Virus record (IMG/VR): IMGVR_UViG_3300036791_001299
Coordinates: 1-53,914 of that record
Reading direction: 5' to 3' (one strand)
Source: a virus
Taxonomy: Duplodnaviria > Caudoviricetes
Length of the DNA stretch: 53,914 nt
Below the pieces are notes generated by a model. The model saw only the letters and a list, made by a program, of their open reading frames with translations. It ran no database searches and had not been told where the DNA came from. The translations under genes and the position numbers were made by a program. Positions 4,919-49,354 of the stretch are shown piece by piece. Every line of letters starts with the position of its first letter. The stretch's first letter is position 1.

Positions 4919-4933
4919 TGTCGTATTCCTCGG

Positions 4934-5389
4934 TTAAAATTGCTCAGTAGGTTTCAATGCCTGCTCAGCGGCTTGGTAGCTGAGACTGGTAGCTGAGACC
5001 AGAGCCATGCGCATAGCGATGGTCATGGCCAGACATTGCTCCACGTTTAAATTCCACTGCCGCACCATAATCTCGACGCGGCCATCGCGCACGTAGAGAG
5101 TGGCGGGAATCCAGGTCATGCCTTCCATCGGCGGTTGCGAGCAGAAGAATTCGATGCGCGTCAATTTGCCGTTCTGCGTCTCCGTAGGCTCGATACGGCA
5201 GAGCACCCGCTTCGCGTCTTTCAACTCGGTCTCGTGCTGCCGGTCGAGGTCGAAGGCGTCGATTACCGAATGGCATTGCTCGCACACCGCGTAGTCCTGA
5301 GAGCTGGGACCCGTTTCAGAGTCGTAGTCGAGGCGTGTCAGCATGCGGAATTCGGACGGCTGGCCGCAGGACGGGCAATTGAGTGTCAT
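4934..5389 (-). CDS. Hypothetical zinc-ribbon protein; C-terminus encoded by a CRISPR repeat copy
   Basis: CPSCG...CEQC; 3' end overlaps the solitary repeat. Confidence 0.6.
   Translation of the reverse strand: MTLNCPSCGQPSEFRMLTRLDYDSETGPSSQDYAVCEQCHSVIDAFDLDRQHETELKDAKRVLCRIEPTETQNGKLTRIEFFCSQPPMEGMTWIPATLYVRDGRVEIMVRQWNLNVEQCLAMTIAMRMALVSATSLSYQAAEQALKPTEQF
4951..4999 (+). repeat. Solitary CRISPR repeat plus 13-nt tandem duplication of its 3' end
   Basis: GTTTCAATGCCTGCTCAGCGGCTTGGTAGCTGAGAC (4951-4986) then TGGTAGCTGAGAC; 4 mismatches to the array consensus. Confidence 0.9.
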
Positions 5390-11000: not shown

Positions 11001-11447
11001 CTGGTTGACCGGCGGATTGTCGGAGCTGTATCCGGCTCCCACGCCCACGTTGCCATTCGGCCCCTGATAGATCACCGATCCGATCAGGGTCGAGCCGTCG
11101 TCCGAATAGATGGGCACCTGCCCGGGAGTGCCGGGAGGAACATTGCCCCCGACCGCGCCGCCCGACTGGCAGAGCGCCGGGGATTCGCCATTCTGCGGGA
11201 TCTTGATCAGCGTCCAGAAGGTGGCATCGTTGAGCATGATTGACTTGGTGCCGTCCGGCAATAGAAAGTCGGTGGTCGAGGGATCGACGCGGATGATGAC
11301 CTTGTGGCCGTCGCCGGTGGTGACACGTTGCAGCTCGAAGGGCGCGTTGGGCGTTTGAGCAAACGGCAGCAGCGTGACGGTGATGTCATCCTGCGAGGTG
11401 TCGAAGCGCAGAAACCGGTCGATCTTGCGAACCGTGTAGCTCGTCAT
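8073..11447 (-). CDS. Tail fibre / receptor-binding protein
   Basis: 1124 aa, G/S/T/N-rich, repeated GNVG(I/V)G motifs, position after the tail tip gene. Confidence 0.8.
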   Translation of the reverse strand: MTSYTVRKIDRFLRFDTSQDDITVTLLPFAQTPNAPFELQRVTTGDGHKVIIRVDPSTTDFLLPDGTKSIMLNDATFWTLIKIPQNGESPALCQSGGAVGGNVPPGTPGQVPIYSDDGSTLIGSVIYQGPNGNVGVGAGYSSDNPPVNQLDVGFTTGTQPDGSDNQGGIHVAPGVPGNVIDAIYNDNGVLTWNGKPVGGMAGTPGYIPFFTDTTVLGDSTIFQDSNGNVGIGTAVPKVALQVGSVMGLFDPGNEGFPTVANNLYYDPAASQYHYIENGYASAINQDTSGRINFYTAAQGAADAVAALSLRLEVNNDGGLIINPGVPATTVNALYSDGTNLLWNGQIVSGGVVSGSENYVAKFNTPDGKSIGDSAIFEVGGQASIGTTQGLGILTVAQTSASGPALVLENTSSGSTVYLDLYNAGTFTGSISSDHFNTLALASGNAIDFTAQTHRFWLGNLTSQSPMVATIDGTGLTVDRAANAYGIRINDSAASTAGTGYGYATSVRVSGNMLQFTQDTSDFHGNCLVLAMQNGSGTFDGNYATFLNSGSQKFSIDFEGNTFVAGQLSLSINNPPFDKFSNTNQNIEDQGGTGTTGFTGITWSAASTGYMMGLENSNADLAKSNGLLVRIANQDVSSRVLTLNVAGIDVVYARGDGSFSAQSYYVGDTLIINNGGSWVGDITMGNVSLSTTAPIESHHITAQSDGAMNDQDNLSPAVFLLGPEATSMRVVENHVYPYPTTGVVSREAALMAGTIVPANTTNWETDGIVSTIVNKSQKASVAGSFFAVSATDGGYAWAQNWYVTDYDNFDPSQNYRSTVIGCEIDMKLNNTGSDCSGINLGVYMPSAVDKPSRDLFTIPVDAIRIQLTGGPDAYASSHNWFSRGIYFADGSCDIGIQIGRCPSAIGVNSQFIDFRSGTSAQYLCKLYSASDGTFIIFPNTGNADVMSNPIAFFPDGNVGANVYAASTGFQIGTHGGTLRTVIDSAANVFCHSVTIGTSTSGTLVINNSSQANFAALTVGSGGATFFGAASFNGPGFSVAANYVNANGYYSNGIQVIDINQNLTNIGNLGCGSITVNAGNITITSASPSGRFVCRSIPGMNASMAVTTPSGTQTVTITGGIITGWA

Positions 11448-14400: not shown

Positions 14401-15724
14401 TCATGCCCGTCGCCCAAAAAGCCCGCTGCGGGTTGCCCAGCGAATTGCACCAGATCTCCTGCAGCGGACTGCCCCAGATGCTGTCGCTCAGAATGGAGGT
14501 CGCGAATACGGTCGTCTGGTTCCAGAAGGAACTGGCACCCAGGTCTTTGATCAGCACGGTCTGCGGTTGCGCCGGATGACCGCCGAAGTAGTTGCTCATG
14601 CCATGCGCGAGACAGCCATTGGTTGAGTCGAAATTGTAATCGCAGCTGAGGGGATCGCCGCCTTGCGGATTGAAGTGCTGCGTGGTGTAGGGGCAAGGCC
14701 GGTATCCCGGCAGAACGTCTTTATCAAACGGCTTCCAGCATTGCCTCGAGACCGTGCGCGGCGGATAGGACTGCGTTACCGGATACATGCCGTCCGAGCA
14801 CTGCACGCTCATCTGGGGGGTGCCGTCGATCTGCCAGGAGATAATCACACCTTTCCACATCTGGATCAGATAGCCGGACTGGACGTGGAATAAACTCAGG
14901 TCGATCTCCGCGAATTCGAGCGAGCAGTCGTTGATCAGCGCGGTCATGGCGCGGTCCGCGTTGCCGAAGGTGAAGCGCACGTTGTCGGAGCGGCCATCGA
15001 TGGACTGCGACAGGATGACATCGGAACTGCCCGGCTGGCCGATACCGACGACCCGCGGCAGAAACGTGGTAGCGCCAGACGTGCCCGGGAAGCCGGTCAC
15101 ACTGCAACGCCGGTCGGAGAAGTAAATGTCCGGCACTGCGGCATTGCGCACCTTGATGTGCAACAGCGGCACGATGGTCTGCACCTGATTGGCGAGCTGT
15201 TGCAGTACGGCATCTGGCGGGAAGCGGGTGACGGTAGCGCCGATGGCATAGGTGGGCGCGGCAGCGGGATCGATGACCTCGACGAACGTGATGCCGGTCT
15301 GCACACGGTTAGCCAGCTCTGTCGCGGAAAGTGGCGCAAGATCGAAGATCACCTGATAGTTGGTGAAGCCCACGGGCCATTGTCCGGCTGGCATCTGTGT
15401 GATGTCGTCATTCGGCACCGGATAGGTGAACGACTGAAACGACCCCTGTACCGAGTCGTAAAAGCTATTGAGGTAGCGCCGGTCGGCGTAGGTCAGACTG
15501 GACTTGATGAACTGGAAACGCCGCGCGCCGGAGCCTACCACATAGCGCTGGATGCCCATGGTCGCCAGATCGCCGAACCGGTGCTCGACAATTTTCCAGT
15601 CCTGCGTCATCCCGTAGCCGTACTCGGAGACGAGAGTAAACGTGAGACCGCTGCGCACCGGCACCGGCACGTTAATGCGGCCAATGGTGTCCGCCGTTTT
15701 TGTGTCGCCTTGCTTAACCATCAA
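11444..15724 (-). CDS. Tail tip / host-specificity protein (gpJ-like multidomain hub)
   Basis: 1426 aa after the tape measure and distal tail genes; Cys cluster (CWKPF...CPY...CDY...GC) like gpL/hub proteins. Confidence 0.7.
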   Translation of the reverse strand: MMVKQGDTKTADTIGRINVPVPVRSGLTFTLVSEYGYGMTQDWKIVEHRFGDLATMGIQRYVVGSGARRFQFIKSSLTYADRRYLNSFYDSVQGSFQSFTYPVPNDDITQMPAGQWPVGFTNYQVIFDLAPLSATELANRVQTGITFVEVIDPAAAPTYAIGATVTRFPPDAVLQQLANQVQTIVPLLHIKVRNAAVPDIYFSDRRCSVTGFPGTSGATTFLPRVVGIGQPGSSDVILSQSIDGRSDNVRFTFGNADRAMTALINDCSLEFAEIDLSLFHVQSGYLIQMWKGVIISWQIDGTPQMSVQCSDGMYPVTQSYPPRTVSRQCWKPFDKDVLPGYRPCPYTTQHFNPQGGDPLSCDYNFDSTNGCLAHGMSNYFGGHPAQPQTVLIKDLGASSFWNQTTVFATSILSDSIWGSPLQEIWCNSLGNPQRAFWATGMIVAVRDESTFMDVLGIVGAGPIAQFEGMSIQTNSDGYKFVVSPIADGFFPQGLQLDSNLNITSINTAGLRWSVGNDPVARSTSPQQGQDAFSLGQGDPQVWAEHDPKFTNIGIANQIIPYAAGTALCEIRYSKSGGTGVSPTTAESHNMQVPIREGLTASIFDVNGVRSSAPGCINPFWVAVNSYFRALGIQFADAATQLSAIVLDSLTNTAGTGCADIAALWVNPVIGSVIPGYVMTATGKALYGANLDYYNDTFTWQTGPPTGPIHTITIEAAVQQGYIATISTSGQEPQFMFQGAIGEFKPFRDWLTEILNCSLGYFCFEFGKLNLGIRYNAIPTDNFSLGSMLYQSLSLTPITAQFEYLKVNFANVELQFQADMAEYQDKDHAIYYGRGGAPLTSSMKSVGISTLSQGLRVAVSRVREETGGVLRPDVTANPYIEWDNNKRATFKTTLLALNTEIGQVIAITHPDMPTYPGAAKSAKAGSNGPFPANTWPFRIKKWMLHSDWSVTIVADSCVDSMYDLESGNVPVSGANPRPMPVLFFPEPLGQWAPHQVQADQYDALYPAEWSFSLSQSFDHAGDGSLLTSAWLGGALPVNQFIPNCGSPDIKKGGVSWAPGGSIPGGTTMYVQICAAITNSTTGSVSYSPPSEILVLQVPPDGNSHSITINNIHWPPVTGLTGWALFAGTTEDLICQQATGTGSPASITFNGPLLRQTYAVPDHDVHILRLRATRMIHGGVLGAAVQDISHNSITSWDTIDVAGTDNWTGRVLAIIGRQMTDGVTRFQHFNVAGWDASTGEYTLDRDPIAEGQVNVGDTFVICFKGYDNSATPTVIGDPGLANANNTPPHSAETPHDPSRIGQMVRIIAGTGRGLSAKIVDNDETSYTLDRALVIDATSVWVVTDPGWAYSKDVIVDNVDALRTTLSEIPINNYLQTQLLCEGVTIASQGDIVDDTNALVRMLYIPGVQGTTNVTTVPPPLRRNTILAS

Positions 15725-16155
15725 GCCACCTCGATCAGCGTTATATTGGGCACCACGTTGCGCCCGGGCCCCACTGTATGGGACCAGTTGCCGCGGAAGA
15801 ATACCGTGGCGCGGCCTTGCGCATTGCCGCCGGTCGGGTCGTAGTTACTGCCGTGCTTCTGCCCGGGCAGCACATCGGTCGGATCGTAGAAAAAAAACGG
15901 CTCCTGGCCGCCGTGCGCAATCACCCGCCACATTTTCAGCAGCTGCGAGAATTGCCACGTGTTGAGCCGGTGCGAGAGTACCCAGGTGCGCATGGCTCGC
16001 GGCGGATTCACGCCATCCTGTACCAGCGAGCGCTCGATAGTGCCGTCGTTATATTCGATGGTGAGGAGCGGATAGATGCGCGTCAGCACAAATGACGTGC
16101 TCAGTACCGGGTCGATCACTGCCGTCGGGTTCGCGGGATTGAGGTTATAGGGCAT
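15721..16155 (-). CDS. Distal/minor tail protein (gpM-like)
   Basis: Directly after the tape measure; GGQEPFFFYDP motif. Confidence 0.6.
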   Translation of the reverse strand: MPYNLNPANPTAVIDPVLSTSFVLTRIYPLLTIEYNDGTIERSLVQDGVNPPRAMRTWVLSHRLNTWQFSQLLKMWRVIAHGGQEPFFFYDPTDVLPGQKHGSNYDPTGGNAQGRATVFFRGNWSHTVGPGRNVVPNITLIEVA

Positions 16156-16156
16156 A

Positions 16157-19100
16157 TTATCCGCTGATGGTACCGGGCTCGTTGAGCATGAGCGCTTGAT
16201 TGACTCTGCCGTTCGACGCATACATGGCGTTTGCGTACTGCGTCGAGACGACGTCCGGAGTGACCACCTGCCCGGTCATGAATCTGGCCGCATCCTGGCC
16301 GCCGACATTGAGCGAGAGCGAGAGCGGCATATTGCCGCCGGGATTGGCGAGCTGCGTGGTGGAAGCGCCGCCGTAGACCGGCAGATTGGAGCTGTAGCTA
16401 TAGCCCTGGCCGTACTGATACGTGGCCTGCTGATACATTCTGCCGCCGGACTCGACCAGAGACGCGCCATGAGCTTCGTTGGCGCTCTGCTTGAAGAGGC
16501 TGCCCTGCCCGGTGCCCGCCGCATAGAGACCCAGCATGTGGCGCACCTCGGGCGAGCGCACCGCGAGCGAGACATGCCCGGCATAGCTCTGCTTCGCCAT
16601 GGCGACGATCTGATCGGCGACCCCGTTGTCAATGTGAATGCCGTAAACCTGCTGCACGAGACGGATGGCTTCATGGCGCGGCGACTCCGCGCCGGTGAGC
16701 ACCTCAAGGCCGCCCGCCAGTGCTCCAGCCGCAGCGCCAATGCCTGCGCCGATAGCCGTACCGACGCCCGGCATGATCATGGTGCCGATCCCGGCCCCGG
16801 TTAGCGCTCCGCCGCCCATCGACTCAAAGAAACCGCCTGCGGTGCCTCGGCGCTGTCCCGCGAGACCCGCCATACCGAGCATCAACCCCGTGGATAATTC
16901 GGCTTGCCCGGCAGCTTTGCTGGTCAATGCCCCAGCTAGTTTGCCACCGGTCGCCAATTCCACTAAACCCGGCGGCAGTTTAACCGGCGAAACCGGTAAG
17001 CCATCCGCACCGATCATTCCACCACCGCCGCCGCCGCCGCCACCACCCGCAGGTCGCCCGAATCCCCGCAGGATGCCTCCTATAAGGCCGCCGCCACCAC
17101 CCGCAGGCTGCCCGAATCCCCGCAGGATGCCTCCTATAAGGCCGCCACCGCCACCGCCTCCGCTATACCCCATGGAGCCTCCGCCGCCGGGCGATGCGAT
17201 GGATGCTGTCCCGAAGCCCGGGAAGATGCTGCCCGCGCCATAGTATCCGGTGCCGGATTCCGCCGGTGCCGTAGCGCCTCCGCCACCGCCGCCGTAAAGC
17301 AGACCTGTCGGTAACGAAATACCGCTACGAAGGACTCCGCCGCCGATAGTGCCGCCACCACTGCCAAACAAAGTAGCCAAGGCTCCGCCACCACCGCCAC
17401 CGAACAGATGAGGCGCAAAAGCCGAAAGGGGGCCGCCCCCGCCACCACCAACTCCGCCAGCTCCACCTGCGGAAACGCCGGTCACGTGTACCGGAACAGA
17501 ACCCTCTGATGTCAATTTCACGTCCGCCAGCTTCCCGTGGAATCCGCCGAACATGCCGTGGAGCATGCCCGCGATACCGCCGGTGCCCTCCGCGCCGAAA
17601 ATAGTGGGCCGCATCAACTGTGCCGCGGTTTCACTCAACCCGCCGATAATCGGCCTCATGGTGGCTTGCCTGACGGTCTGCCCCAGCTGCGAACCAAACT
17701 TGCCGGGGTGTGTGAAGAGCGTCTCGAATAGCGGTTCCAGGGTCTTGGCAATTTCCTCAGTCTGCTGCTTCTGCATTTCCATCAGTTTGACCGTGCTATC
17801 CCAATGCGCGTCGTCGATCTGCCGCTGATATTCGCCCTGCGCTTTGACACCTTCGATCTCGAGTTTATTCAGATCGATGGCTCTTTTTTCCTTGTCAGCG
17901 GTCTGCTGTTTGCTTACCCTGTAGGTTTCTTCGACCAGAATTTTCTGTTCCGCCAGTTGCTGTTGAGTTTCCGCGCGGCCCATTCCGGCTTCCTGGATAC
18001 GCAAGCCTTCGATGCCAGCAAGGGTACCGGGCCGTCCGCTCTTGAGGCCCTCGGCCTGGAGCATTTCAATCTGCCGGTGCAGCATGTCACGCTTGCGCCT
18101 GCGGCCTTCGGAAAACACTGCCTGATCCAGTTGACGCTCCCGGTCCTTCGCCGCCTGCGCGGCGTTTTTGGCCTGATCGTCGCGCTTGGCTTCGAGCGCA
18201 CTCTGCTCTGTGGTTGCTTTGGTCCTGTCTTCGGCAATGCGGCGTTCCAGTTCACGCTGGGCCTTGGCTTGCGCTTCCTCGATGGTGGCTGCATCCATTT
18301 TGGCCTTCTTCATCTCCTCGATACGGCCCATCTCATCGCGGTAGGCCATGGTCGCGAGGACTACTTGGTTGCGGTACTCGGCCTGGATGTCGACCTCGCT
18401 GTACTCCTCGCCAGCAGCCTTTCGTTTGGCCTGGAAGATGGCGTAGCTGGAACGGATAGCGCTCTCATCCCGTGAGCGCTGCGTTTCATCCCGGGTCGCC
18501 GCCCGCATCTGCGCCTGCTTCTGGTTGAAGGCTTCGATATTGGCAGCCTGGATCTGATCGATGATCGCGATGTTTTGCCGGTGGTTTCGCAGGATGGCGG
18601 GATGCTCTTTCTCTTCTTCGCGGAGCAGCCGGATGCGTTCGGTATGTGCGGCATTGATTTTGTCCATGCCGTACAACTCTTTTTCCTGCGCTTTCGCCAG
18701 TTCCTCCCGCAGGCGATTGGTGTAGGCCAGCGCTTCGTTCAGGTCCTTGAGACCGGCTTTTTGGGCATTGAGTATGTCGTTTTTCGCCTGATCTTTGGAC
18801 CCCTTCGTTATCTTTGTCTGCAGATCGGTTGACTTTTCGATATATTCGATCTCGGCGTAGCGCGCATCGATATCCTGCTGCCGGATGATTTCGCCATGGA
18901 TTGGCGTAATCCCTGGCGGAAGCGTCATGCCCCGGGTGTCGGTAACGTCTCCCGGCATACCTGTGCGCGGGCCCTTTGCCCGACGCCAAAAGCCTGTCAT
19001 CTCCTCGCCGGTTTTTCCCTCAAAGGGGTCTCCTAGCTGAGCCGCCCGCCAGAATGCAAGATTGTGTGCTTCGGCTTCCCGCTGGTCAATGACTCGCTGT

Positions 19101-20074
19101 TTCGCCTCCTCAAAGAAAACACCAGTGCCCTTCATTTGTTTGAGGTGCGCGATCTCCTCATCAAACTCCGGAGGAGCTACCAATAGGCCCATGGGTTTTT
19201 GGATCCACTCTTCTACCCAGCTCATTTTCGTCTGGTCTTTAAGAACCGTGAGCAATTTATCCAAAATATCGCCCATGGTCTTGTCGAGCTTCATGGCCGC
19301 CAGATTGGCATCGTCAATGGCCTGTGCGAAGCCATCTTCGGGCTTGTGTTCCAGTTTGGCGATGGAGTTCTCCAGTTTGTCGTTCACCACCTGTTGCTCA
19401 AGAATGGTGATCTCGATCTCCTCGTTCATCTGGCGGAAGGCGAGCCTTGCCCTCAAGGCTGCCTGCTCCATATCCCTCAATTCCTTTTGCAGCTTCATCA
19501 CGCCTTCAACCACGCGCCCGATGACTTCCAGGATGCCGACAACGGCAACCGCACTAAACGCGGCGCTCATGGCCGCGCCGACACCCGGCAATTCTGCAAG
19601 GAAACCACGGAGCTGCCGTGGTATATGGACACCGAATTCCATGCCCAGCAAGGCCATGGCGTTTTTGGCGTCCTTGGCCTGGGCCGCGACTTCCGCAAGG
19701 TTTCCGCCCGCGCGCTCCTTCTCCTTCCGGATCATCTCCTCCATGGCAACGTTGACCCGTTTGATGGCCTCTTCGTTGCCTTTGTACTTCTGGGTGAGAA
19801 ACTCCTGCCGCGCGATCAGCCGGTCGACCGGACTTCTGGCGTAGGCCGCCGCTTCGCGCTCCAGATTTTTCAGGTTGCGCTCGGTATTCTGTTCCTGCCG
19901 GTTGTTCAGCGCCGTGATGGACTTCGAGAAATCGTCGACCGCTTTCTCCGCGACCTTGAAGTCAGTAACGACCCCTTTCGACATGTCCTCGAAGACTTTC
20001 TCGACCTTCCGCACTTGCTCCAGGACGGAGCGCTCGTTGATCCTGATGTCGATGTCGATGCCGGACGGCGTCAT
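16157..20074 (-). CDS. Tape measure protein
   Basis: ~1305 aa, helical/coiled-coil, Gly-rich C-terminal part, canonical position. Confidence 0.85.
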   Translation of the reverse strand: MTPSGIDIDIRINERSVLEQVRKVEKVFEDMSKGVVTDFKVAEKAVDDFSKSITALNNRQEQNTERNLKNLEREAAAYARSPVDRLIARQEFLTQKYKGNEEAIKRVNVAMEEMIRKEKERAGGNLAEVAAQAKDAKNAMALLGMEFGVHIPRQLRGFLAELPGVGAAMSAAFSAVAVVGILEVIGRVVEGVMKLQKELRDMEQAALRARLAFRQMNEEIEITILEQQVVNDKLENSIAKLEHKPEDGFAQAIDDANLAAMKLDKTMGDILDKLLTVLKDQTKMSWVEEWIQKPMGLLVAPPEFDEEIAHLKQMKGTGVFFEEAKQRVIDQREAEAHNLAFWRAAQLGDPFEGKTGEEMTGFWRRAKGPRTGMPGDVTDTRGMTLPPGITPIHGEIIRQQDIDARYAEIEYIEKSTDLQTKITKGSKDQAKNDILNAQKAGLKDLNEALAYTNRLREELAKAQEKELYGMDKINAAHTERIRLLREEEKEHPAILRNHRQNIAIIDQIQAANIEAFNQKQAQMRAATRDETQRSRDESAIRSSYAIFQAKRKAAGEEYSEVDIQAEYRNQVVLATMAYRDEMGRIEEMKKAKMDAATIEEAQAKAQRELERRIAEDRTKATTEQSALEAKRDDQAKNAAQAAKDRERQLDQAVFSEGRRRKRDMLHRQIEMLQAEGLKSGRPGTLAGIEGLRIQEAGMGRAETQQQLAEQKILVEETYRVSKQQTADKEKRAIDLNKLEIEGVKAQGEYQRQIDDAHWDSTVKLMEMQKQQTEEIAKTLEPLFETLFTHPGKFGSQLGQTVRQATMRPIIGGLSETAAQLMRPTIFGAEGTGGIAGMLHGMFGGFHGKLADVKLTSEGSVPVHVTGVSAGGAGGVGGGGGGPLSAFAPHLFGGGGGGALATLFGSGGGTIGGGVLRSGISLPTGLLYGGGGGGATAPAESGTGYYGAGSIFPGFGTASIASPGGGGSMGYSGGGGGGGLIGGILRGFGQPAGGGGGLIGGILRGFGRPAGGGGGGGGGGMIGADGLPVSPVKLPPGLVELATGGKLAGALTSKAAGQAELSTGLMLGMAGLAGQRRGTAGGFFESMGGGALTGAGIGTMIMPGVGTAIGAGIGAAAGALAGGLEVLTGAESPRHEAIRLVQQVYGIHIDNGVADQIVAMAKQSYAGHVSLAVRSPEVRHMLGLYAAGTGQGSLFKQSANEAHGASLVESGGRMYQQATYQYGQGYSYSSNLPVYGGASTTQLANPGGNMPLSLSLNVGGQDAARFMTGQVVTPDVVSTQYANAMYASNGRVNQALMLNEPGTISG

Positions 20075-20085
20075 AGCTTTTCTCT

Positions 20086-20562
20086 TTAGGCGACCATACC
20101 AGTCTGAGTAACCTGAAGCGGCGACCGCCGCATCAGCTCCTCCCGCATTCTCCCGTAGATCGCCTCCTGGTCGGTCGGCGAGAGTCCCCACATGTGATCC
20201 AGCCGGTTACGGCTGTACATGATGATGTAGGCCTCGCGGGAAATGGGGCCGATGGTGGCCACGTTCTCGCTCGCGGCTTTCACCTTCATCGACTGAATGG
20301 TGCGTCCGCGCAATGTCCAGTCGCGCACCGGGAAGCCGCTATAGCGGCGGTTGCCGCCGAGCGCGACGAAACGCCCGTGGCGCTTCTGCTCCGCGTATTT
20401 GGTGTCGAGCGGCTTGGCCGCGCTGTCTGTCGCGTCTGTCGCCGACTGGATGCGACGGATGATGTGGCTGAGACCGGCCTGCGCGATCCCCTGCATCTGC
20501 TCAGCCGTGAACGGCGACCACGTCACCCGCGCGCGCCGTATTTTTGTCTGAAAAAAAGGCAT
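20086..20562 (-). CDS. Virion morphogenesis / neck-like protein
   Basis: Basic 158-aa protein with RDWTLRGRTIQSM motif; tail-module position. Confidence 0.5.
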   Translation of the reverse strand: MPFFQTKIRRARVTWSPFTAEQMQGIAQAGLSHIIRRIQSATDATDSAAKPLDTKYAEQKRHGRFVALGGNRRYSGFPVRDWTLRGRTIQSMKVKAASENVATIGPISREAYIIMYSRNRLDHMWGLSPTDQEAIYGRMREELMRRSPLQVTQTGMVA

Positions 20563-36148: not shown

Positions 36149-38206
36149 TTACCGGCGGCGGAATCCGCCCCGCTGCGCGCCCAGACCCGGGTAGGCTGGC
36201 TGCGCAGTCACCGGTGCCGTCCAGGCGGCTTGAGTGGGCTGTGGCACCGGTGCCGGACGTGGCGGCGCTGCGCCTTCGATGGCAATAGCCGCCTCGAAAT
36301 GACGCCAGTGGTCTTCCCCAAACCGGTCCGCGCCCACAATCGAATAGGCCGCCCGGTTGTACACCGCGAGATCGATGGGCTCATTGCGCGGCGCGCGCTT
36401 CTCGTAGACGACGTCGCCGTTGGGCTTGACGATCTTCACCTCGGAGCATAAGCCTTCGAAGTACGTCATGTCATACATCGGCCAGTGATAACAACCGGTC
36501 ACCGGCGTATCGTCCACCGTAGGCACCGCGTGCCGCATCAAATCAAACAATTCAGCCTTGCAGCAGTTCACCCCGACACCCACAATGCGCGTCCCCTGCC
36601 GCTTGCGCGCCGCATCTTCCTTCGAAATGCTGGCAATGACCCGCAGCTGGTCCGGCGTACCCTTGATAGGCACCACCGTGCGCGCCGCGATCAACTTAAT
36701 ACCTTGCGGTCCGTAATGCAGCTGATGCCCCCGCCGCGTAAACTCGTATACCGGCTTCGGGTTTTTGCCGGTGTCGATGGTCATGCAAAGGATCGGCAGA
36801 CTCTTACCCGAGTTGTGCGCCCACTCGCGTCCCAATAACTCATACAGCTGGTCCCACAATTCCCGCGCGCTCACCGGCAACTCCTGGCCATTCTCGCTGA
36901 ACGCTTGCAGCACCCAGTAGCCCATCGACCAGTTTTCGCGGTTTCTACCCCAGGCCTTCACTTCAACCTCGAGACGCGCCGGATGCTCCTGGACGTCAAC
37001 CGCCGCCGTCAGGAACAGACCCCGCTGCGGCACCACCGCAGTATCCCCGAACGGATAAGCCTCCCGCCGCGCAAACAACAGATCCTTCTCCGGCGCTTCG
37101 CCTTCTTCCACCCATTCCTCGGCGAGCACCGTATTGATAAACGTTTTGAGACTCTGCCGGTCGTCTTTGGCATTCAGAAACTGCTGCGAAATGGACGCCG
37201 CCGACTTCCAGCTCGGTGGCACATACAAGTGGTTCAGCCAGAATCCAGCCGTGCGATTGCCCGCCTGCGGACGATCCGCGCGCCACTCGACATAGTGATC
37301 CACCGCATCCCAGCGCTCCCGCTCCGTCCACGGCTTATCGCAACTGATGCAGTAATAGCGCGCCGTCGCCGCCTGCAGCTCCCGCGCCACGGCGGTAGAC
37401 CACTTGACGTGATACCCGTCCCGGTCGCGGAATCGCAACACCTGCATGGTGCCGCAATGCGGACACGGCACGTAGGGGCGCCGCTGGTCGGACAACGCAA
37501 ATGCCCTGCCGATCCGGCTGCGCCCGGCCACCGTCGGACTGCACGCCAGGATACGCTTGCGGCGCGTCCCGAAGGTCATGGCGCGTTCCCACGCAAGGTC
37601 GATAGGATCACCTTCTCCCTGACGCTCCTGGCTGCCGCCGACATCCTGGTCGTACTTGTCGATCTCATCGCACACCAGATACCGGATGGTGTGCTGCGCC
37701 AGATCCACCGGCGTGCGCGCACTGATGATCAGCAGGTTGCCGCCCGGGAAGGTCTTGCTCTGGATGGTATTCGAGCCATCGTGGATGCCGTCCAGCACCT
37801 TATTGCGCAGGATCTGGCAATCCCGCACCATGGGCATCAACCGGCGCTTCGAGAAATCGCGCGCGGCGTCTTTTTTGGGCTCGACCAATAAGATGGGCCC
37901 CGGCTCCTCGGCGATCCAATACGCAATCGCCAGCATGATCGCGAGACTCTTGATCACCTGGGTGGACGACATGATCACCACGGTCTCGATGGTGTCGTCC
38001 GTTATGGCGTCGAGAATGCCCCGCTGCCAGCCGTACAACCGCAAGGGACCGGTCGACGAGCTGTACTCCGGCGACAGCACCACGTTGGCTTCCGACCATT
38101 GCGAAAGCGGCACCCGGGGACGCACCCGGAAGATCTCAGAGTGCAAGCTCTGAAATACCGGCGGCGGCCAGTCCCAGCCTGGAACTAAGAAAGATGGCGT
38201 TTCCAT
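36149..38206 (-). CDS. terL: Terminase large subunit (lambda gpA family)
   Basis: variant Walker A SSTQVIKS, LVCDEIDKY, CSPT, CPHCG, AAVDVQ, IDTG, RNEPIDL. Confidence 0.95.
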   Translation of the reverse strand: METPSFLVPGWDWPPPVFQSLHSEIFRVRPRVPLSQWSEANVVLSPEYSSSTGPLRLYGWQRGILDAITDDTIETVVIMSSTQVIKSLAIMLAIAYWIAEEPGPILLVEPKKDAARDFSKRRLMPMVRDCQILRNKVLDGIHDGSNTIQSKTFPGGNLLIISARTPVDLAQHTIRYLVCDEIDKYDQDVGGSQERQGEGDPIDLAWERAMTFGTRRKRILACSPTVAGRSRIGRAFALSDQRRPYVPCPHCGTMQVLRFRDRDGYHVKWSTAVARELQAATARYYCISCDKPWTERERWDAVDHYVEWRADRPQAGNRTAGFWLNHLYVPPSWKSAASISQQFLNAKDDRQSLKTFINTVLAEEWVEEGEAPEKDLLFARREAYPFGDTAVVPQRGLFLTAAVDVQEHPARLEVEVKAWGRNRENWSMGYWVLQAFSENGQELPVSARELWDQLYELLGREWAHNSGKSLPILCMTIDTGKNPKPVYEFTRRGHQLHYGPQGIKLIAARTVVPIKGTPDQLRVIASISKEDAARKRQGTRIVGVGVNCCKAELFDLMRHAVPTVDDTPVTGCYHWPMYDMTYFEGLCSEVKIVKPNGDVVYEKRAPRNEPIDLAVYNRAAYSIVGADRFGEDHWRHFEAAIAIEGAAPPRPAPVPQPTQAAWTAPVTAQPAYPGLGAQRGGFRRR

Positions 38207-38351: not shown

Positions 38352-38618
38352 GTCTCACCTATCAAGCCGGTGAACAGGCATTGCGTAGCTTTTCTCCATA
38401 ATAATTTCTCCGTAGGTCTCACCAACCAAGCCGGTGAACAGGCATTGCGACTTTAGTGCATGATAGTCTCAGTTACCAGGCCACCAAGCAGGCATTGCGT
38501 CTCCCTCATCCTCGTCCCGGCTACCAAAGCCGCCGAGCAGGCATTGCTTGGTTCCGGCCCCATCTCGACTAGAGCCTTCTGCGTTTCAGCTACCAAGCCG
38601 CTGAACAGGCATTGTGGA
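38352..38618 (-). CRISPR. Distal array segment: 5 variant repeats
   Basis: Repeats at 38352, 38416, 38466, 38514, 38583; spacers about 28, 14, 12, 32 nt. Confidence 0.8.
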
Positions 38619-39263
38619 CTCCTCGGCAATCGCGCGCTGCGCCAATACTAACAGGTCCACGCTGTCAGGCAGCGCCGCGGCCCGTACTGCCACATATGCT
38701 GCCTCCGCCACCCTCCTCATTACCGTAATCTCTATTTGCTGGCACGCCGCGCAGGCCGCACACGTGGCGCACCACGCTGCTTTGGCCGCTCCCCTTGCCT
38801 CCTTCGAGCGATGCTGAACTGCCCGGACTGATGCCGCCATCCCGGCTGCGACTGCCTTTTCGTGAGAACGATCCGTACCGTTTAGCCACCCATACGCCCA
38901 GCCCACAAAGGACGGATCGCGGTCCACCGCCATCGCGCACATAACCGCAAACCGCACCCTCGCGCTTGCCGCAACCTCCGGCATCTCGATGCGCCGGATG
39001 GTGGTCAGCGACCTACACCCACACTTGAGTTGTCCGTCACGCAGTCCTATTTCGCCCTCAGCCTCCCAGAGCAGTATGTTTCGGGGATCAACGTATATTG
39101 CCGGGATCAATAAAGCCGCCAGGAGCGGATGCTCGTGAGCATGTATCCACCCGTCCGTAAAAAGCTCCTTGCCGGTGCCGGTCGCGGCGTGGGTGACATT
39201 CTCCCCCCACTCGATCCCGTCTCCCGACTGGTCATTGGCGTCAGCCACTTTATAGAGGGTCAT
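38586..39263 (-). CDS. Phage hypothetical protein embedded in the CRISPR array
   Basis: 225 aa, AAGG RBS, flanked by repeats on both sides; stop codon lies inside a repeat. Confidence 0.75.
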   Translation of the reverse strand: MTLYKVADANDQSGDGIEWGENVTHAATGTGKELFTDGWIHAHEHPLLAALLIPAIYVDPRNILLWEAEGEIGLRDGQLKCGCRSLTTIRRIEMPEVAASARVRFAVMCAMAVDRDPSFVGWAYGWLNGTDRSHEKAVAAGMAASVRAVQHRSKEARGAAKAAWCATCAACAACQQIEITVMRRVAEAAYVAVRAAALPDSVDLLVLAQRAIAEESTMPVQRLGS

Positions 39264-39325
39264 TTGGTTTTTACCTTACCTTTCCGGGTAGACTAATGCG
39301 CACGGGCTTACTGTGCTCGGCGCTG

Positions 39326-39362
39326 GTCGGCAATGCCTGTTCAGTGGCTTGGTTACTGAGGC
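39326..39362 (+). repeat. Inverted CRISPR repeat copy
   Basis: GTCGGCAATGCCTGTTCAGTGGCTTGGTTACTGAGGC, opposite orientation to the array. Confidence 0.85.
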
Positions 39363-39380
39363 CGTCAACACACATCGCGC

Positions 39381-41379
39381 GTCCCGGCTACCAAGCCGCC
39401 GGGCAGGCACCTCGGATTACTTCACGGATGTCTCAGCTACTAGGCCGCCGAGCAGGCGTTGCGACAGACCATAAGATCTTCGCGTCACACCAACTAAGCC
39501 GGTGAACAGGCATTGCAACGCGGAATGCGACGTGCGTTGGCGTCCACCCGAAGAGTCGCGTCTCAGCTACCAAGCCGCTGAGCAGGCACCGCGACTATCG
39601 CTAAAGGCTAATGTCCCAGCTACCAAGCCGCTGAACAGGCGTTGCAACGCAGCTTGCTGACCCAGATCAAGACCTCCAGATCCATCCCGTCTCAGTAACT
39701 AAGCCACCGAGCAGGCGTTGCGACCCCATGTCTCTATCAACGGACGTCACGACAAACAAGTCTCAGCTACCAAGCCGCTGAACAGGCGTTGCGACGCACG
39801 GCGGCGGCGATCCGCACCAGGAAGTCCACGTCTCAGCTACCAAGCCACCGAGCAGGCGTTGCGACACCACGAAAGGATCGGGAGCAATGACGTCTCAGTA
39901 ACCAAGCCACTGAGCAGGCGTTGCGACGGAGGGTGGCGTGATCGCTCATGAAACCAGTATGCGCTGTCTCAGCTACCAAGCCACTGAGCAGGCGTTGCGA
40001 CGCTGCATCCTTCGGTTGTTCCCATCGCACCTGCCACGTCTCAGCTACCAAGCCACTGAGCAGGCGTTGCGACGATTTAAACCCTGGTATATGCTCATGC
40101 ATAATAGTCGGGTCTCAGCTACCAAGCCACTGAGCAGGCGTTGCGACTGCCAGCCATTTTTCGAGCGCCGCCGTTGGGACGCGTCTCAGCTACCAAGCCA
40201 CTGAGCAGGCGTTGCGACGATTTAAACCCTGGTATATGCTCATGCATAATAGTCGGGTCTCAGCTACCAAGCCACTGAGCAGGCGTTGCGACGCTGTTAA
40301 AGTAGCGCGGTGCCGTTTGTGCGGTTAGTTGTCTCAGTAACCAAGCCACTGAGCAGGCGTTGCGACCACGTCGACAGATCTCTTTCACGGCGATGACGTC
40401 CTGTCTCAGCTACCAAGCCACTGAGCAGGCGTTGCGACGGGGTCGAGTATGACGCCGATATTCAGCCTCGAGCCGTTGTCTCAGCTACCAAGCCACTGAG
40501 CAGGCGTTGCGACGTTCGAAAACTGGCCGGAGATCGCCACCACTGACCCTGTCTCAGCTACCAAGCCACTGAGCAGGCGTTGCGACAGGAGCCGCCCTTG
40601 CAGGCGGATGATCTGGCGCTTGTCTCAGCTACCAAGCCACTGAGCAGGCGTTGCGACACTGCGATCCGGTGCGACCGGCGGGTATCAGCAGTAGTCTCAG
40701 CTACCAAGCCACTGAGCAGGCGTTGCGACGTTGTATTTCGGACAATACTATCCGTTGGAATTTGTTGTCTCAGCTACCAAGCCACTGAGCAGGCGTTGCG
40801 ACATCCGTGGTCCGCGTACTGCGGGTGCCGACATCGTCGTCTCAGCTACCAAGCCACTGAGCAGGCGTTGCGACGTCCAGGTCAAAATCATCAAGCACGG
40901 ACGGTTTAGCGTCTCAGCTACCAAGCCACTGAGCAGGCGTTGCGACCTAAACCCCGGAAAAAGTTCGAAGCACCCTACCCTGTCTCAGCTACCAAGCCAC
41001 TGAGCAGGCGTTGCGACGCGGTGACATCGCCGAGCGCCGCGCCCCAGATGTAGAGTCTCAGCTACCAAGCCACTGAGCAGGCGTTGCGACACGGAAACTG
41101 GTCGGGCTGGAGGAAATCGAGCAGTAGGGGTCTCAGCTACCAAGCCACTGAGCAGGCGTTGCGACCGCGGTCCGGCCTCCGGTCTCCTCTTTCTCGGAGC
41201 GTCTCAGCTACCAAGCCACTGAGCAGGCGTTGCGACAACCCGGACCTGCTCGCTCGATACCGGAACCGTCTTGTCTCAGCTACCAAGCCACTGAGCAGGC
41301 GTTGCGACCATTCGGCAGGGGTAGATACCCCCCAACTACCTACGTCTCAGCTACCAAGCCACTGAGCAGGCGTTGCGAC
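39381..41379 (-). CRISPR. CRISPR array, 29 repeats of 36 nt (21 near-identical, 8 variant)
   Basis: Minus-strand repeat GTCGCAACGCCTGCTCAGTGGCTTGGTAGCTGAGAC; mostly 34-40 nt spacers; divergence increases away from the cas gene. Confidence 0.98.
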
Positions 41380-41382
41380 AGC

Positions 41383-43191
41383 CTAGTCGCCAGCTGCCAT
41401 GTTTTCATCAGGTTCCAGACCGGTTTGCGAGCGGTCTGGTTTTGCGCCCTCTTCCACCTCCGTAACTCGTTGTTTCTTATCAGATGCCACCTCTGGCATC
41501 GCCCCACCGCTCGCACGCATCTGCCCCCACGCCTTCAACAGATTCTTCGCCGCATTCAAATCCTGGTCCCACAACATCCCGCACCCACCGCACCGGTGCA
41601 TGATACTCGCCGCTTGATCCCACTCATGCGCATACCCGCACGCATGGCACTCCCGCGTCGTATACGGCGCAGGCAGCTCAACCACCGCCACCCCTTCCCG
41701 GCTGCACGCACTCTTAATCGCCAGCCGCAACGTCCCCGTACTGGCCATAAACCGGTACGTCCCCGACCCCGTGACAACCGCCGCCGACTCCGGCTGAGGA
41801 TGCTCCACCACCGAGCGCAAATCAAATTCCTCCACCACCACCACGTCATAATCCCGCGCCAGCCCTGCCGCGAAATCCCGATACCGCGCCAGCCTCCGGC
41901 CCGTCATCTGATGCTGCAGATTCCGCCACCAGTCCGTCAAATGCAGAAACTGCTTGCGCCACCGGACCGCCTCCGCAAACATTCCCTCATCACCCGGCAG
42001 CCGGTTATCCGCCCACCAGCGGATCAACGCCGCCACACGTTCCCCGGACCGCCACTGATACAGATACGCCGACCGCGTCCGCCACTCCTCCGCCAACTCC
42101 CGCTGGCCCAGCCACTCCACTAGCTCCGGGTGAAACTGCTCCCGGCTCTTATCGCAGATCGACCGCAGATCCGCGACCTTCTGGAACTGCGCGATATCGG
42201 AGCCCTCAATCCGCAATTCACCATGGCCGCCCAGCGAGTCAGCCCAGTATCCCACCCGCACCGCGCCCTCCGGCTTCAATCGCCAGCCCAGATCGAGCGC
42301 CAATACCCGGCTGCCGGTCTTCTCACTAGGCCGCGGCAAGCTGATGCTCACATTCAGCTGCCAGTGCGTCTTCCCCGCCAGGATGCGGCGGCTGGCGCTT
42401 ACACTCTTGATACGCGCCTCCGGAGGCAGATCCCGATGGTAAACAATCGGAATCTCAACCCACACCGGCGACCGATCCGCATTGCTGCCGATCCGCACGC
42501 GCGCATACCGCCACTTCCGGCCCGGCGTCGGTGGATCCACCTGGAACAGCGTGTTGGTGCCGCCTACGCAGTCGCTGACGCACGCGCCACCCTGCACCTG
42601 CGCGGTAACCGTCCCTTCGCCGCGGAAGCCGTGATAACGCAGCTCGCTATCCCCCTTGCCCTTGCGCGCCAGCTGACGCGCCGTCTCCGCCCGCTGAATG
42701 ATGTCGTTATAGGAGCCCCAATAGAGCCCCAGACCCGCCGCCGCTTGCCGCGCCTTAATCGTGCGCCGGTACGCCCGCTCCGTATTGGCATCCAGCTGCT
42801 GCCGCTTGGCCTCATGCCGCGATTCCTTGGTCGCCTTCCGCTCCGCGATCAACGGCTTTCGCTCCGCCTCCGCCGCCGCAATGCGCTCCGGCAGATCACC
42901 AAGATCCGCGCCCTTGCGTTTACGCGCGGACTGGCGAGCCTTCTTGATCAACTCCCGGCACAAACTGATCTCCGCCGACAGCTCATCGATCCGCGTTTGC
43001 TGGTCATCCCGCATGATCCGCCGGTACGCCGTATCGCGCGTACGCTCGATGGTGACCAGGACATTCCATAGCCGGTTGCCCAGCCGCATCTGTCCTCGAG
43101 CCGAATCTTCATTGATCACCGGTGCGATCCGCGCCGGTACCGTGCCATAGGAGTACACCCGGCTGGCTGTATCGTCTGTTTTACGCTGCAT
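41383..43191 (-). CDS. cas12m: Type V CRISPR effector, Cas12m-like (V-M/V-U1, TnpB-derived), ~602 aa
   Basis: LYWGSYN, LRYHGFRGEGTVTAQVQ, PIVYHRDLP, RuvC-I ALDLGWR, RuvC-II VVVEE, TTRECHACG...CGGCG zinc finger, RuvC-III DQDLNAAKNL; abuts the array. Confidence 0.85.
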   Translation of the reverse strand: MQRKTDDTASRVYSYGTVPARIAPVINEDSARGQMRLGNRLWNVLVTIERTRDTAYRRIMRDDQQTRIDELSAEISLCRELIKKARQSARKRKGADLGDLPERIAAAEAERKPLIAERKATKESRHEAKRQQLDANTERAYRRTIKARQAAAGLGLYWGSYNDIIQRAETARQLARKGKGDSELRYHGFRGEGTVTAQVQGGACVSDCVGGTNTLFQVDPPTPGRKWRYARVRIGSNADRSPVWVEIPIVYHRDLPPEARIKSVSASRRILAGKTHWQLNVSISLPRPSEKTGSRVLALDLGWRLKPEGAVRVGYWADSLGGHGELRIEGSDIAQFQKVADLRSICDKSREQFHPELVEWLGQRELAEEWRTRSAYLYQWRSGERVAALIRWWADNRLPGDEGMFAEAVRWRKQFLHLTDWWRNLQHQMTGRRLARYRDFAAGLARDYDVVVVEEFDLRSVVEHPQPESAAVVTGSGTYRFMASTGTLRLAIKSACSREGVAVVELPAPYTTRECHACGYAHEWDQAASIMHRCGGCGMLWDQDLNAAKNLLKAWGQMRASGGAMPEVASDKKQRVTEVEEGAKPDRSQTGLEPDENMAAGD

Positions 43192-43198
43192 GCTTAAA

Positions 43199-43228
43199 AT
43201 TGTATTTAAAGGTGGGCCAAATTGCGAA
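43199..43228 (-). promoter_or_regulatory. Candidate leaderless promoter for cas12m (TTCGCA-N18-TACAAT-N7-ATG)
   Basis: No SD before ATG 43191; -10 box 7 nt upstream. Confidence 0.5.
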
Positions 43229-43250
43229 AACAACGGCGGGTGGTTTTGTT

Positions 43251-43709
43251 TTATCGTCGCGGCTCGAAAACGATAACCTGGACGGACTCCATCGAGCCAA
43301 GCGCCTGCTCTATTTCCGGACGCACATCACCCCAGCTCAGCCCGCCATTGCCGCATCCCAGCGCAGGTATTGCTAGGGACCGAATATTTTCCTCTTCAAT
43401 CACACGGCGAAGATCCCGCAGTCCGTCGACAATCCATTTCAGCTGGGAGGGATGCCGCCAGTGCTCCTTCGTGGGAAAGTTGATCACCCACTGCGGACCG
43501 TGAAGGTCGTTGGTCTTCGTAACAAACATGCGCCCGATTCTGACTTCATTGCGGTTGCACGCTAATACGTAGGCGCGATAATTCTTCGGATAAGCATATC
43601 TGAATTTGAACGCAATCCCCGCGCCCATCGTGCCGACCGTGTTCACGGTATTGACCAGCGCTTCCACTGGCTCTCTCAAGAGATCCCCGTCTACCCGAAA
43701 TGTGATCAT
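43251..43709 (-). CDS. DarG-like macrodomain (ADP-ribosyl hydrolase)
   Basis: GDLL...ALVNTVNTVGTMGAGIA..F, INFPTKEHWR, SLAIPALGCGNGGLSW. Confidence 0.88.
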   Translation of the reverse strand: MITFRVDGDLLREPVEALVNTVNTVGTMGAGIAFKFRYAYPKNYRAYVLACNRNEVRIGRMFVTKTNDLHGPQWVINFPTKEHWRHPSQLKWIVDGLRDLRRVIEEENIRSLAIPALGCGNGGLSWGDVRPEIEQALGSMESVQVIVFEPRR

Positions 43710-44248
43710 GCCACCTTCTGTGCGTCGAGATCGGCGTTGAGTATCCGGTTAATGTTTTCCCACTTCGCCAGTACCCGCAGCATGGCGGCCTCCAGGACAG
43801 CGCGGATCTTCAGCGGCTCGGTCTCGGACGCCAGCGAGTCAGCCAGCTCGGAAGGCAGCCTCAGCAATTCATCGCGCCCATCGACCAGGAACTTTGCCGC
43901 CCACCGCGACACATAGCCGACCGGCAACAATTCCCCGCGCCGCACCATATTCTCAATCTCTTGCTTCTCGGCGAGCGCCCTCGCCCGGCGCAGCTTCGCG
44001 GACTCCAGCGCATCGGTACGCTCCGCCGCCGCGATCACCATCTCGTATTCCGAGCGCGGAGTCTCTTTCTCCGCCACCGCCTTCTCCGGAATAGGTGGCA
44101 CCGGCGTTGTACCATGCCGCTGCGCCGCAAACGCACGTATCTGCTCGACCGTCTTGCCCGCCCGCATCATATTCGATACCGTCTTGGGCGGCAGATTCAC
44201 ATCGCGCGCGAGCGAATTAACGCCTACATAGGTGACCCGTTGCATCAT
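43706..44248 (-). CDS. terS: Terminase small subunit (Nu1-like)
   Basis: N-terminal HTH; AKLRRARALAEKQEIENMVRRGELLP coiled coil typical of Nu1. Confidence 0.75.
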   Translation of the reverse strand: MMQRVTYVGVNSLARDVNLPPKTVSNMMRAGKTVEQIRAFAAQRHGTTPVPPIPEKAVAEKETPRSEYEMVIAAAERTDALESAKLRRARALAEKQEIENMVRRGELLPVGYVSRWAAKFLVDGRDELLRLPSELADSLASETEPLKIRAVLEAAMLRVLAKWENINRILNADLDAQKVA

Positions 44249-49086: not shown

Positions 49087-49314
49087 GAAGGAAAGGCGAA
49101 AACGCATGTGAAAAGGGGTCTTGGCGAAATAGTAAGGGGTCCCGGAAAATTTGAAAAATCCCAGGAAAAACCGGCCCTGGAAAATTTCCCGGCCAAAAAA
49201 GGGGTCCCCGGCTGGGCCGCCGTTCCCGGCAACACGCATCCCTTGTTGACAAAAACTGCTCTCCTACACGATACTCATGTGTACAAGGCGGCGGTCACTG
49301 ACTGCCAGCCTTAA
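49087..49314 (+). repeat. 228-bp direct repeat, copy 2, with promoter TTGACA-N18-GATACT (49246-49275)
   Basis: Near-identical to 47148-47375. Confidence 0.92.
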
Positions 49315-49318
49315 GCCG

Positions 49319-49354
49319 GTCTTAATGCCCGTTCAGTGGCTTGGTAGCTGAGAC
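49319..49354 (+). repeat. Solitary CRISPR repeat
   Basis: GTCTTAATGCCCGTTCAGTGGCTTGGTAGCTGAGAC; last 22 nt identical to the array consensus. Confidence 0.9.

Follow-up and report, generated by a model that had tools for sequence, protein, structure and literature searches.

A Cas12m effector with an intact D-E-D site and an adjoining CRISPR array in a tailed-phage genome

Within the Cas12m family of CRISPR effectors (type V-M, formerly V-U1), MmCas12m2 is reportedly the subject of Wu 2022. The family has been split into four clades (Wu 2022 as cited in PMC10442227), with RuvC sites reading DED or NED in clade 3 and DED, DND or NED in clade 4. Bigelyte et al. (2024; PMC11013384) studied eight Cas12m, four with D-E-D, two with H-D-D and two with N-D-D sites, and report cleavage of double-stranded DNA (dsDNA) for none of them and binding dependent on a protospacer-adjacent motif (PAM) for six of the eight; purified D-E-D MsCas12m cleaved neither target nor bystander DNA or RNA, in cis or in trans, and its D274A mutant still processed CRISPR RNA precursor (pre-crRNA). 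For Cas12m2, whose HDD site was shown to grip the displaced strand through metal ions, reversion of HDD to DED did not restore cutting (PMC10442227), so the triad is not all that the family is missing. We analysed IMG/VR record IMGVR_UViG_3300036791_001299, from a virus of the Caudoviricetes, over its full 53,914 nucleotides (nt; hereafter the window), the minus strand of which encodes a 602-amino-acid (aa) protein next to a CRISPR array. The protein is a member of the Cas12m family, and we consider it probable that it acts in RNA-guided DNA binding, silencing rival elements rather than cutting them.

Among characterised systems, the nearest in site and repeat is MsCas12m (WP_013159911.1, from plasmid pMESIL02 of Allomeiothermus (Meiothermus) silvanus), which shares with the window protein the D-E-D residues and the Cas12u1 profile, and has a very similar repeat of 36/37 nt (GT.GCAA.GCCT..GCTCAG.GGCT...CTGAGAC). 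Its array likewise lies downstream of the gene, and neither adaptation genes nor a trans-activating RNA (tracrRNA) have been reported for it. It differs in being 31.6% identical, 536 aa long, plasmid-borne and not sister to the clade of the window protein, and whereas its lack of cutting was measured, that of the window protein is proposed here. MmCas12m2 (PDB 8hhl, 8hio) and GoCas12m (8pm4) have the fold of the window protein (query-normalised TM-score, TMq, 0.67-0.70), its domain order and its guide scaffold register; unlike it they are H-D-D, have lost the NAAxN part of RuvC-III, are 20-23% identical and come from actinobacterial hosts. The chain of PDB 23vw ('CRISPR-associated DNA-binding protein Cas12m', 577 aa) is D-E-D as well (AIDLGW / VLEEF / WDQDYNAAKNLL) and belongs to a neighbouring group, with a member of that group (P0061) scoring 494 bits to 23vw against 302 for the window protein.

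Virus-encoded Cas12m is already in print. The CHOOSER study lists 21 of viral origin, 623-999 aa long, nine of them D-E-D (PMC11576732), and MvCas12m of myxophage MV-1 (610 aa; D305, E463, D555), described as the first phage Cas12m, has an array of eight spacers for which no targets were found (bioRxiv 10.64898/2026.09.14.751636). In Virus Rctr197k (KX853510) we found a D-E-D homolog of 622 aa that carries no annotation, although the CRISPR immediately downstream of it is annotated. All of these resemble the window in pairing, within a viral genome, an effector with an adjacent array and no cas1, cas2 or cas4. By their descriptions alone, the window protein is shorter than the CHOOSER set and its locus has about 25 spacers to the eight of MV-1; the Rctr197k homolog is 32% identical to it and falls in another part of the tree. 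What the window adds is modest: a distinct clade, a position in the terminase operon and dispersed single repeats.

Family membership and fold

The family assignment is carried by four lines of evidence that agree, namely profile, sequences of solved structures, predicted fold and guide-RNA scaffold. The PADLOC Cas12u1 profile matched the protein with E 4.3e-107, residues 10-556 covering profile positions 3-531 of 533, at 357 bits compared with 309 for characterised MsCas12m. The best five PDB sequence matches are all Cas12m chains, led by 23vw (E 9.7e-89, residues 36-567) and including UnCas12m4a (E 2.5e-24), Cas12m2 (8hhl and 8hio, E about 1e-23) and 8pm4 (E 1e-16), identified as the GoCas12m complex from its title in Foldseek. 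An AlphaFold2 model based on 26 relatives (pLDDT 85.1, pTM 0.69) has long REC helices at residues 28-176 and RuvC strands and helices from residue 296, and shows the bilobed Cas12m fold, with WED, REC1, a coiled-coil REC2 and RuvC with an inserted zinc-finger TNB. Foldseek placed Cas12m2 and GoCas12m at ranks 1-4 (TMq 0.61-0.70), and all other fold matches listed, Cas12f, TnpB and Fanzor among them, at TM 0.46 or lower. The earlier note on this DNA, made from the letters alone, had proposed a Cas12m-like effector of about 600 aa and a structure prediction as one check on it; the profile, the PDB matches, the fold and the scaffold all bear this out.

The gene start and motifs are consistent with this assignment. 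The open reading frame (ORF) at 41383..43233 spans 616 aa from a TTG and 602 aa from the ATG at 43191. We take the 602-aa start as correct because a gene call of the same length (P0205) exists on the contig and because homology begins upstream of a shorter, 568-aa call (P0002), the RVYSYG strand aligning to solved Cas12m chains and all close homologs. The product carries LALDLGW (D300), VVVEEF (E454), WDQDLNAAKNL (D542 and D544) and a CxxC...CxxC zinc ribbon, so that the motifs named in the note (ALDLGW, VVVEE, DQD) and its intact D-E-D triad were found at D300, E454 and D544. These three residues are invariant in 26/26 rows of an alignment of the window protein with its relatives (A1), and D542 is invariant too; the CCCC zinc ligands occur in 45 of the 57 rows for its clade. 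The note's description of MmCas12m, with ALHLGW in RuvC-I and Asp in RuvC-II, was also accurate: the Cas12m2 chain aligns ALHLGW and VLVDD, and PMC10442227 gives His317/Asp485/Asp579. The Arg-rich REC1/REC2 pocket for the displaced strand in Cas12m2 (R111, R112, R126, R173) would fall on R, K, H and K in the window protein by phmmer alignment to 8hhl, in a register that is uncertain at about 20% identity.

The note had further suggested an intermediate between TnpB and Cas12m, and such a protein, or a TnpB of transposon type, is the reading we find hardest to credit. The C-terminal RuvC and zinc-ribbon part does match TnpB and Cas12f profiles, and Cas12m has been regarded as close to the root of TnpB (PMC10442227). 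Pfam and NCBIfam scans of the protein gave no Cas12m match: Pfam returned the Cas12f1-like TNB domain alone, and the NCBIfam TnpB model NF040570 covered only residues 442-567, a stretch of 126 towards the C-terminus, at 51 bits against a cut-off of 100. That partial coverage is itself at odds with a TnpB, as are the long REC coiled coil, a length of 602 aa compared with about 400 aa, and a TM of 0.42 to TnpB 8h1j (0.46 or lower for TnpB and Cas12f, against 0.67-0.70 for Cas12m). The protein is moreover nested within the Cas12m tree, and its guides would come from a CRISPR array rather than a transposon end.

The C-terminal tail (residues 567-602; 41383-41490, minus strand) is disordered in the model, with pLDDT below 50, and bears a short DRSQ(T/S) motif that about half of the aligned relatives share, the others lacking the tail. 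A 10-nt stretch of its DNA is common to the related viral contig L001. We considered the region as an RNA element; the hairpin of the window is absent from L001 and folds no better than shuffled sequences, and the idea was dropped.

CRISPR array and guide-RNA scaffold

The first repeat begins 3 nt past the cas12m stop codon, so that a separate leader is absent. When the whole window was searched, unfiltered, with a covariance model of the repeat, 34 minus-strand copies came up from 38352 to 41379, of which 19 are letter-identical. In the main array, mismatches number 0-2 in copies 1-23 and 4-11 in copies 24-29; the 20 spacers nearest to cas12m measure 35-39 nt, and far from the gene the copies are eroded and the spacers shortened. 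Five degenerate copies form a distal block that ends 145 nt before the start codon of the terminase large subunit gene. An ORF of 225 aa is lodged between (Table 1); it has 122 homologs at about 50% identity over its first ~59%, matches PF24703 at E 0.0012, below the cut-off, and has an Ala/Cys-rich C-terminal tail that runs into a degenerate repeat.

Read on the gene strand, the repeat folds into a 5-bp stem (positions 14-18 with 30-34) that ends 2 nt before the spacer, and a 3-bp pseudoknot (9-11 with 20-22). This is the register described for PmCas12m and Cas12m2; in PmCas12m, G(-28) to C(-26) pair with G(-15) to C(-17), and C(-23) to C(-20) with G(-3) to G(-6). Across 44 distinct repeats from the window and six loci (two viral relatives, MsCas12m, two genome loci and Virus Rctr197k), 98.6% of the cells pair and seven of the eight pairs show compensatory changes. 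None of 500 shuffles reached the covariation score, and slid controls were only 10-51% paired. Apart from three full copies of the repeat on the opposite strand, no antisense partner to it was found in the window, and we infer that the guide needs no tracrRNA. Cas1, Cas2 and Cas4 had no match in 46 ORFs, chosen among 123 listed that are 110 aa or longer; an array adjoining its effector in a locus of this kind is characteristic of Cas12m.

The eroded far end raises the question of decay. A non-working remnant would account for that erosion, for the gene and the inverted repeat lodged there, and for a relative (G002) that retains only a 130-aa N-terminal stub of cas12m beside four repeats. The window gene is, by contrast, intact and full length; it shares 59 invariant columns with relatives at about 50% identity and gives a confident model (pLDDT 85), and the 19 letter-identical repeats stand against decay as well. 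We regard this reading as very improbable.

Searches with the spacers returned no protospacer, and hence no PAM can be read. Matches within the window were chance matches of 14-19 nt, matches to all fetched loci reached at most 19 nt, INPHARED phages gave none, and PLSDB plasmids gave the MsCas12m array alone, matched through its repeats. In IMG/VR, a 24-nt piece of one spacer, the duplicated one, had 0 matches. The absence of targets is weak evidence, with one spacer scanned against IMG/VR and none against metagenomes. A 28-nt repeat core likewise had 0 matches in IMG/VR, and in metagenomes it was found at three loci, two of them with Cas12m only 28-29% identical to the window protein and one a lone repeat.

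Three observations on spacers and repeats are recorded alongside. Spacers 16 and 18 (40111-40147 and 40256-40292) are identical, AT-rich and the only duplicated spacer of the array; on the plus strand both copies contain a promoter-like TTTAAA-18-CATAAT, and a promoter-derived spacer would suit a silencing effector. The 3' 28 nt are the only part of the repeat that is kept, even across Cas12m proteins 28% identical (L039, L040). The lone repeat core lies at L041:2001-2028, on an 88,766-bp metagenome contig, with no Cas12m match within the 4 kb examined.

The D-E-D site across the family and its likely role

An intact triad had been the earlier note's ground for interest, as a feature that might mark the protein as nuclease-competent. 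We aligned 115 family members, comprising every third close match, every second of 146 listed representatives of 520-720 aa, and locus proteins of at least 500 aa, with L004 omitted as a copy of L003. The three columns read D-E-D in 93 of the 115; the other 22 are NED, HDD, NDD, DKD or singletons, one of them a truncated row. On a FastTree phylogeny of 114 members (L022 dropped), the non-D-E-D states require at least 12 changes on well-supported branches, so that D-E-D has the look of a default state from which sites were inactivated time and again. The family is large, with 2,840 clusters at 50% identity matching the Cas12u1 profile at E 1e-30 or better. The observation of the triad is thus real, and the premise that made it interesting is outdated: D-E-D is the majority state, is ordinary in Cas12m and has not meant cleavage. 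The note's own caution that a triad alone does not prove cleavage was apt; 4/4 tested D-E-D Cas12m did not cleave dsDNA.

The window protein falls in a clade of 19 sampled rows, all D-E-D, with SH-like support of 100 and a stem length of 0.63, which includes the IMG/VR contig L001. Elsewhere in the family, in an unclear order and with several long branches, lie MsCas12m, the group nearest to 23vw, Virus Rctr197k and an HDD group represented by a M. intracellulare plasmid protein that scores 646 bits to Cas12m2. The note had named grouping inside characterised non-cleaving Cas12m, together with binding only, as the result that would refute its reading; as to grouping, the protein does fall inside the family, but in a clade of its own without a characterised member rather than inside a characterised group. 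Among close homologs, D-E-D is present in all 54 that span the three sites, at a median pairwise identity of 52%, and the other three of the 57 are fragments. Patterns drawn from the clade found a best relative 36% identical among 185,579 species (one genome each), and both close relatives with DNA seen, L001 and L002, are IMG/VR viral contigs, which with the window makes 3/3 loci viral. Judged from these sequences, the clade is distinct and apparently virus-associated.

The two viral relatives differ in the state of their loci. In L001, cas12m and a wholly diverged array of 11 repeats (11743-12428) sit beside a terminase large subunit gene of another family; every repeat of this array differs, yet the stems are compensated. 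In the other (L002, also G002), the stub of cas12m is fused to its four-repeat array (L002:5603-6116).

We favour silencing by DNA binding as the function of the window system; the analysis establishes family membership, fold, guide-RNA scaffold, gene order and conservation, while expression, binding without cutting and the targets are proposed. The cas12m gene and the array would be transcribed together from the minus strand, and Cas12m would, like characterised members of the family, cut the precursor inside its repeats, leaving guides that consist of the 3' pseudoknot-plus-stem handle of the repeat and about 17-20 nt of spacer. The complex would then find matching dsDNA flanked by a PAM, form an R-loop and stay bound, blocking transcription or replication without cutting, as the four tested D-E-D members suggest. 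The most likely task of the D-E-D residues is to bind metal ions through which the displaced strand is clamped, and the phage probably turns the system on competing phages or plasmids in the same cell.

The principal alternative is a working RNA-guided nuclease, in which the D-E-D site of this clade cuts or nicks target DNA and destroys rival genomes; we consider it unlikely, though strict conservation of D-E-D in the clade keeps it in play. It would explain why D300, E454 and D544 are invariant in 54/54 clade members and 26/26 rows of A1, and why the full TnpB-like RuvC-III (DQDxNAAxN) and four zinc ligands are retained. Cleavage by D-E-D clades was raised as a possibility by Omura et al. (PMC10442227), these residues led the authors of the MvCas12m preprint to suggest, without an assay, that their protein is a nuclease (bioRxiv 10.64898/2026.09.14.751636), and the tested Cas12m all lie outside the window clade. 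What tells against it is that all four tested D-E-D Cas12m left dsDNA uncleaved and that purified MsCas12m had neither target nor collateral activity (PMC11013384), together with the failure of the HDD-to-DED reversion in Cas12m2 (PMC10442227). Moreover, the triad is common family-wide (93/115) and so does not mark out active members. A narrower proposal, that this phage-associated, all-D-E-D clade keeps its triad for real cutting or nicking, unlike the tested bacterial and plasmid D-E-D Cas12m, is speculative and rather doubtful; if true, the protein would be a 600-aa nuclease able to process its guides itself and independent of a tracrRNA.

Several points nevertheless weigh against silencing without cutting. 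The window clade is without a characterised Cas12m, and the nearest, MsCas12m, is 31.6% identical and ambiguously related in the tree. D-E-D is kept in 54/54 clade members, and the triad was lost 12 or more times in the wider family, so conservation of this strength can be squared with real catalysis. In PMC10442227, Omura et al. (2023) suggested that clades 3 and 4 might hydrolyse DNA. A literature search found no publication behind PDB 23vu, 23vv and 23vw, and thus no paper giving the activity of 23vw, the closest solved D-E-D Cas12m. No protospacer was found in the window, INPHARED, PLSDB or the fetched loci, and co-transcription of gene and array is proposed from their arrangement, the promoter-like sites being consensus matches.

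Single repeats and the phage neighbourhood

Outside the array orientation, the covariance model detected three full repeat copies on the plus strand (Table 1). Stem and pseudoknot are kept in both solitary repeats, each of which is antisense to neighbouring genes and has a promoter-like site on its own strand: the first, beside the recT start, at 4912-4940, and the second, which extends over the final codons of a gene on the minus strand (phrog_20769), at 49246-49275 (TTGACA-18-GATACT). By chance, about 0.2-0.3 such sites are expected per 600-nt stretch. The inverted copy has no same-strand promoter-like site upstream, and the sequences next to the single repeats occur nowhere else in the window. 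Comparable cases came from the whole records of relatives, with single repeats far from the array in G001 (strong at 23228 and 50536; weaker at 21955, 22036 and 25450) and G002 (9956), and no convincing one in Virus Rctr197k. One G001 copy stands directly behind a promoter-like site and another runs straight into a terminator-like hairpin; neither feature accompanies the G002 copy.

Solitary repeat units have been described as RNA anti-CRISPRs (Racr) in elements without a matching cas gene (Camara-Wilpert et al. 2023, PMC10651486). Like the single repeats of the window, these occur in viral genomes, and they often lie directly behind a promoter. The window repeats differ in that the described units are not tied to cas genes and mimic a host system, whereas this genome encodes the matching cas12m, so that they do not fit the Racr class as described. 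The phage has no adaptation genes of its own among the 46 ORFs scanned. The opposite-strand repeats may be additional one-guide units, repeat decoys or recombination scars.

These copies also bear on whether the system is mainly a regulator, with the array and promoter-driven single repeats supplying fixed guides with which Cas12m represses host genes, or genes of the phage itself or its kin, during infection. Three single repeats have intact scaffolds outside the array orientation, two of them with a same-strand promoter-like site within 80 nt upstream, and single repeats lie far from the arrays in G001 and G002, one directly behind a promoter-like site. The diverged repeats of L001, with their compensated stems, look as if guides were fixed rather than turned over; in phage Cas12r a single repeat suffices for a guide (bioRxiv 10.64898/2026.04.20.719267), and Cas12m acts by transcriptional silencing (PMC11013384, PMC10442227). 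Neither the spacers nor the sequences adjacent to the single repeats, however, match anywhere else in the window genome, and the 23 near-identical repeats with uniform spacers of 35-39 nt have the look of a recently growing immune array. The G001 repeat that runs at once into a terminator-like hairpin leaves no room for a guide and fits a decoy better. We hold a mainly regulatory role to be improbable, and retain silencing of rival elements as the function of the array.

On the minus strand, the order is terminase small subunit, DarG-like macrodomain, cas12m, array and terminase large subunit, and the CRISPR unit therefore lies inside the packaging operon. The promoter-like site ahead of cas12m, a consensus match, is TTCGCA-18-TACAAT at 43228..43199. 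The 152-aa macrodomain matches PADLOC DarG at E 2.9e-70, its residues 1-151 covering profile positions 1-146 of 329, the N-terminal half; there is a 4-nt overlap between its gene and the terminase small subunit stop, and it may be a phage counter-measure to DarT-type DNA ADP-ribosylation.

Table 1. Coordinates of the cas12m locus, the repeats and adjacent genes in the window
Feature	Position	Strand	Details
Terminase large subunit gene, gpA type	36149..38206	-	phrog_15, E 4e-168; Pfam GpA_ATPase, GpA_nuclease
Distal block of five degenerate repeats (38583, 38514, 38466, 38416, 38352)	38352..38618	-	33.9-48.7 bits; short irregular spacers
225-aa ORF lodged inside the array	38586..39263	-	DUF7666-like N-terminal ~130 aa
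Inverted repeat copy	39327..39362	+	just upstream of the lodged ORF; 35.4 bits, E 2.4e-7
Main CRISPR array	39381..41379	-	29 copies of the 36-nt repeat
cas12m gene	41383..43191	-	602 aa plus stop; RuvC D300, E454, D544; zinc ribbon C515/C518/C534/C537
Spacer region between macrodomain gene and cas12m	43192..43250	-	AT-rich, 59 nt; one promoter-like site
Stand-alone DarG-like macrodomain gene	43251..43709	-	directly upstream of cas12m; Pfam Macro 2.6e-22
Terminase small subunit gene	43706..44248	-	phrog_57, E 2.2e-11
Solitary repeat 1	4951..4999	+	repeat 4951-4986, scaffold intact, plus 13-nt duplication of the repeat 3' end; 48.7 bits, E 9.5e-11
Solitary repeat 2	49319..49354	+	scaffold intact; 40.5 bits, E 1.2e-8

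The assembly is one contig, and the genes identified on it include a lambda-type portal, an S49 prohead protease, a scaffold and a major head protein, as well as tail-fibre-like proteins, RecT, a Gam-like protein and an MT-A70 methylase. For the major head protein, identity to those of Roseobacter, Rhizobium and Pseudomonas siphoviruses does not exceed 39%. There are no tRNA genes in the window and no terminal repeat within the outer 1.5 kb at either end. Three very large ORFs of the tail region (8073-20191, minus strand; 1124, 1426 and 1344 aa) matched nothing in Pfam or PHROG at the thresholds applied.

Collectively, the position of cas12m between the terminase genes, beside a DarG-like macrodomain, suggests that this tailed phage carries a small accessory island of conflict genes. 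If the single repeats make guides or decoys, the wiring of phage Cas12m differs from that of the plasmid systems studied so far. For the question that the D-E-D triad had raised, the answer is mostly deflating: an intact site is normal in Cas12m and has so far been no predictor of cutting. The clade found here is a sensible one in which to ask why most Cas12m keep a catalytic-looking site that they seem not to use.

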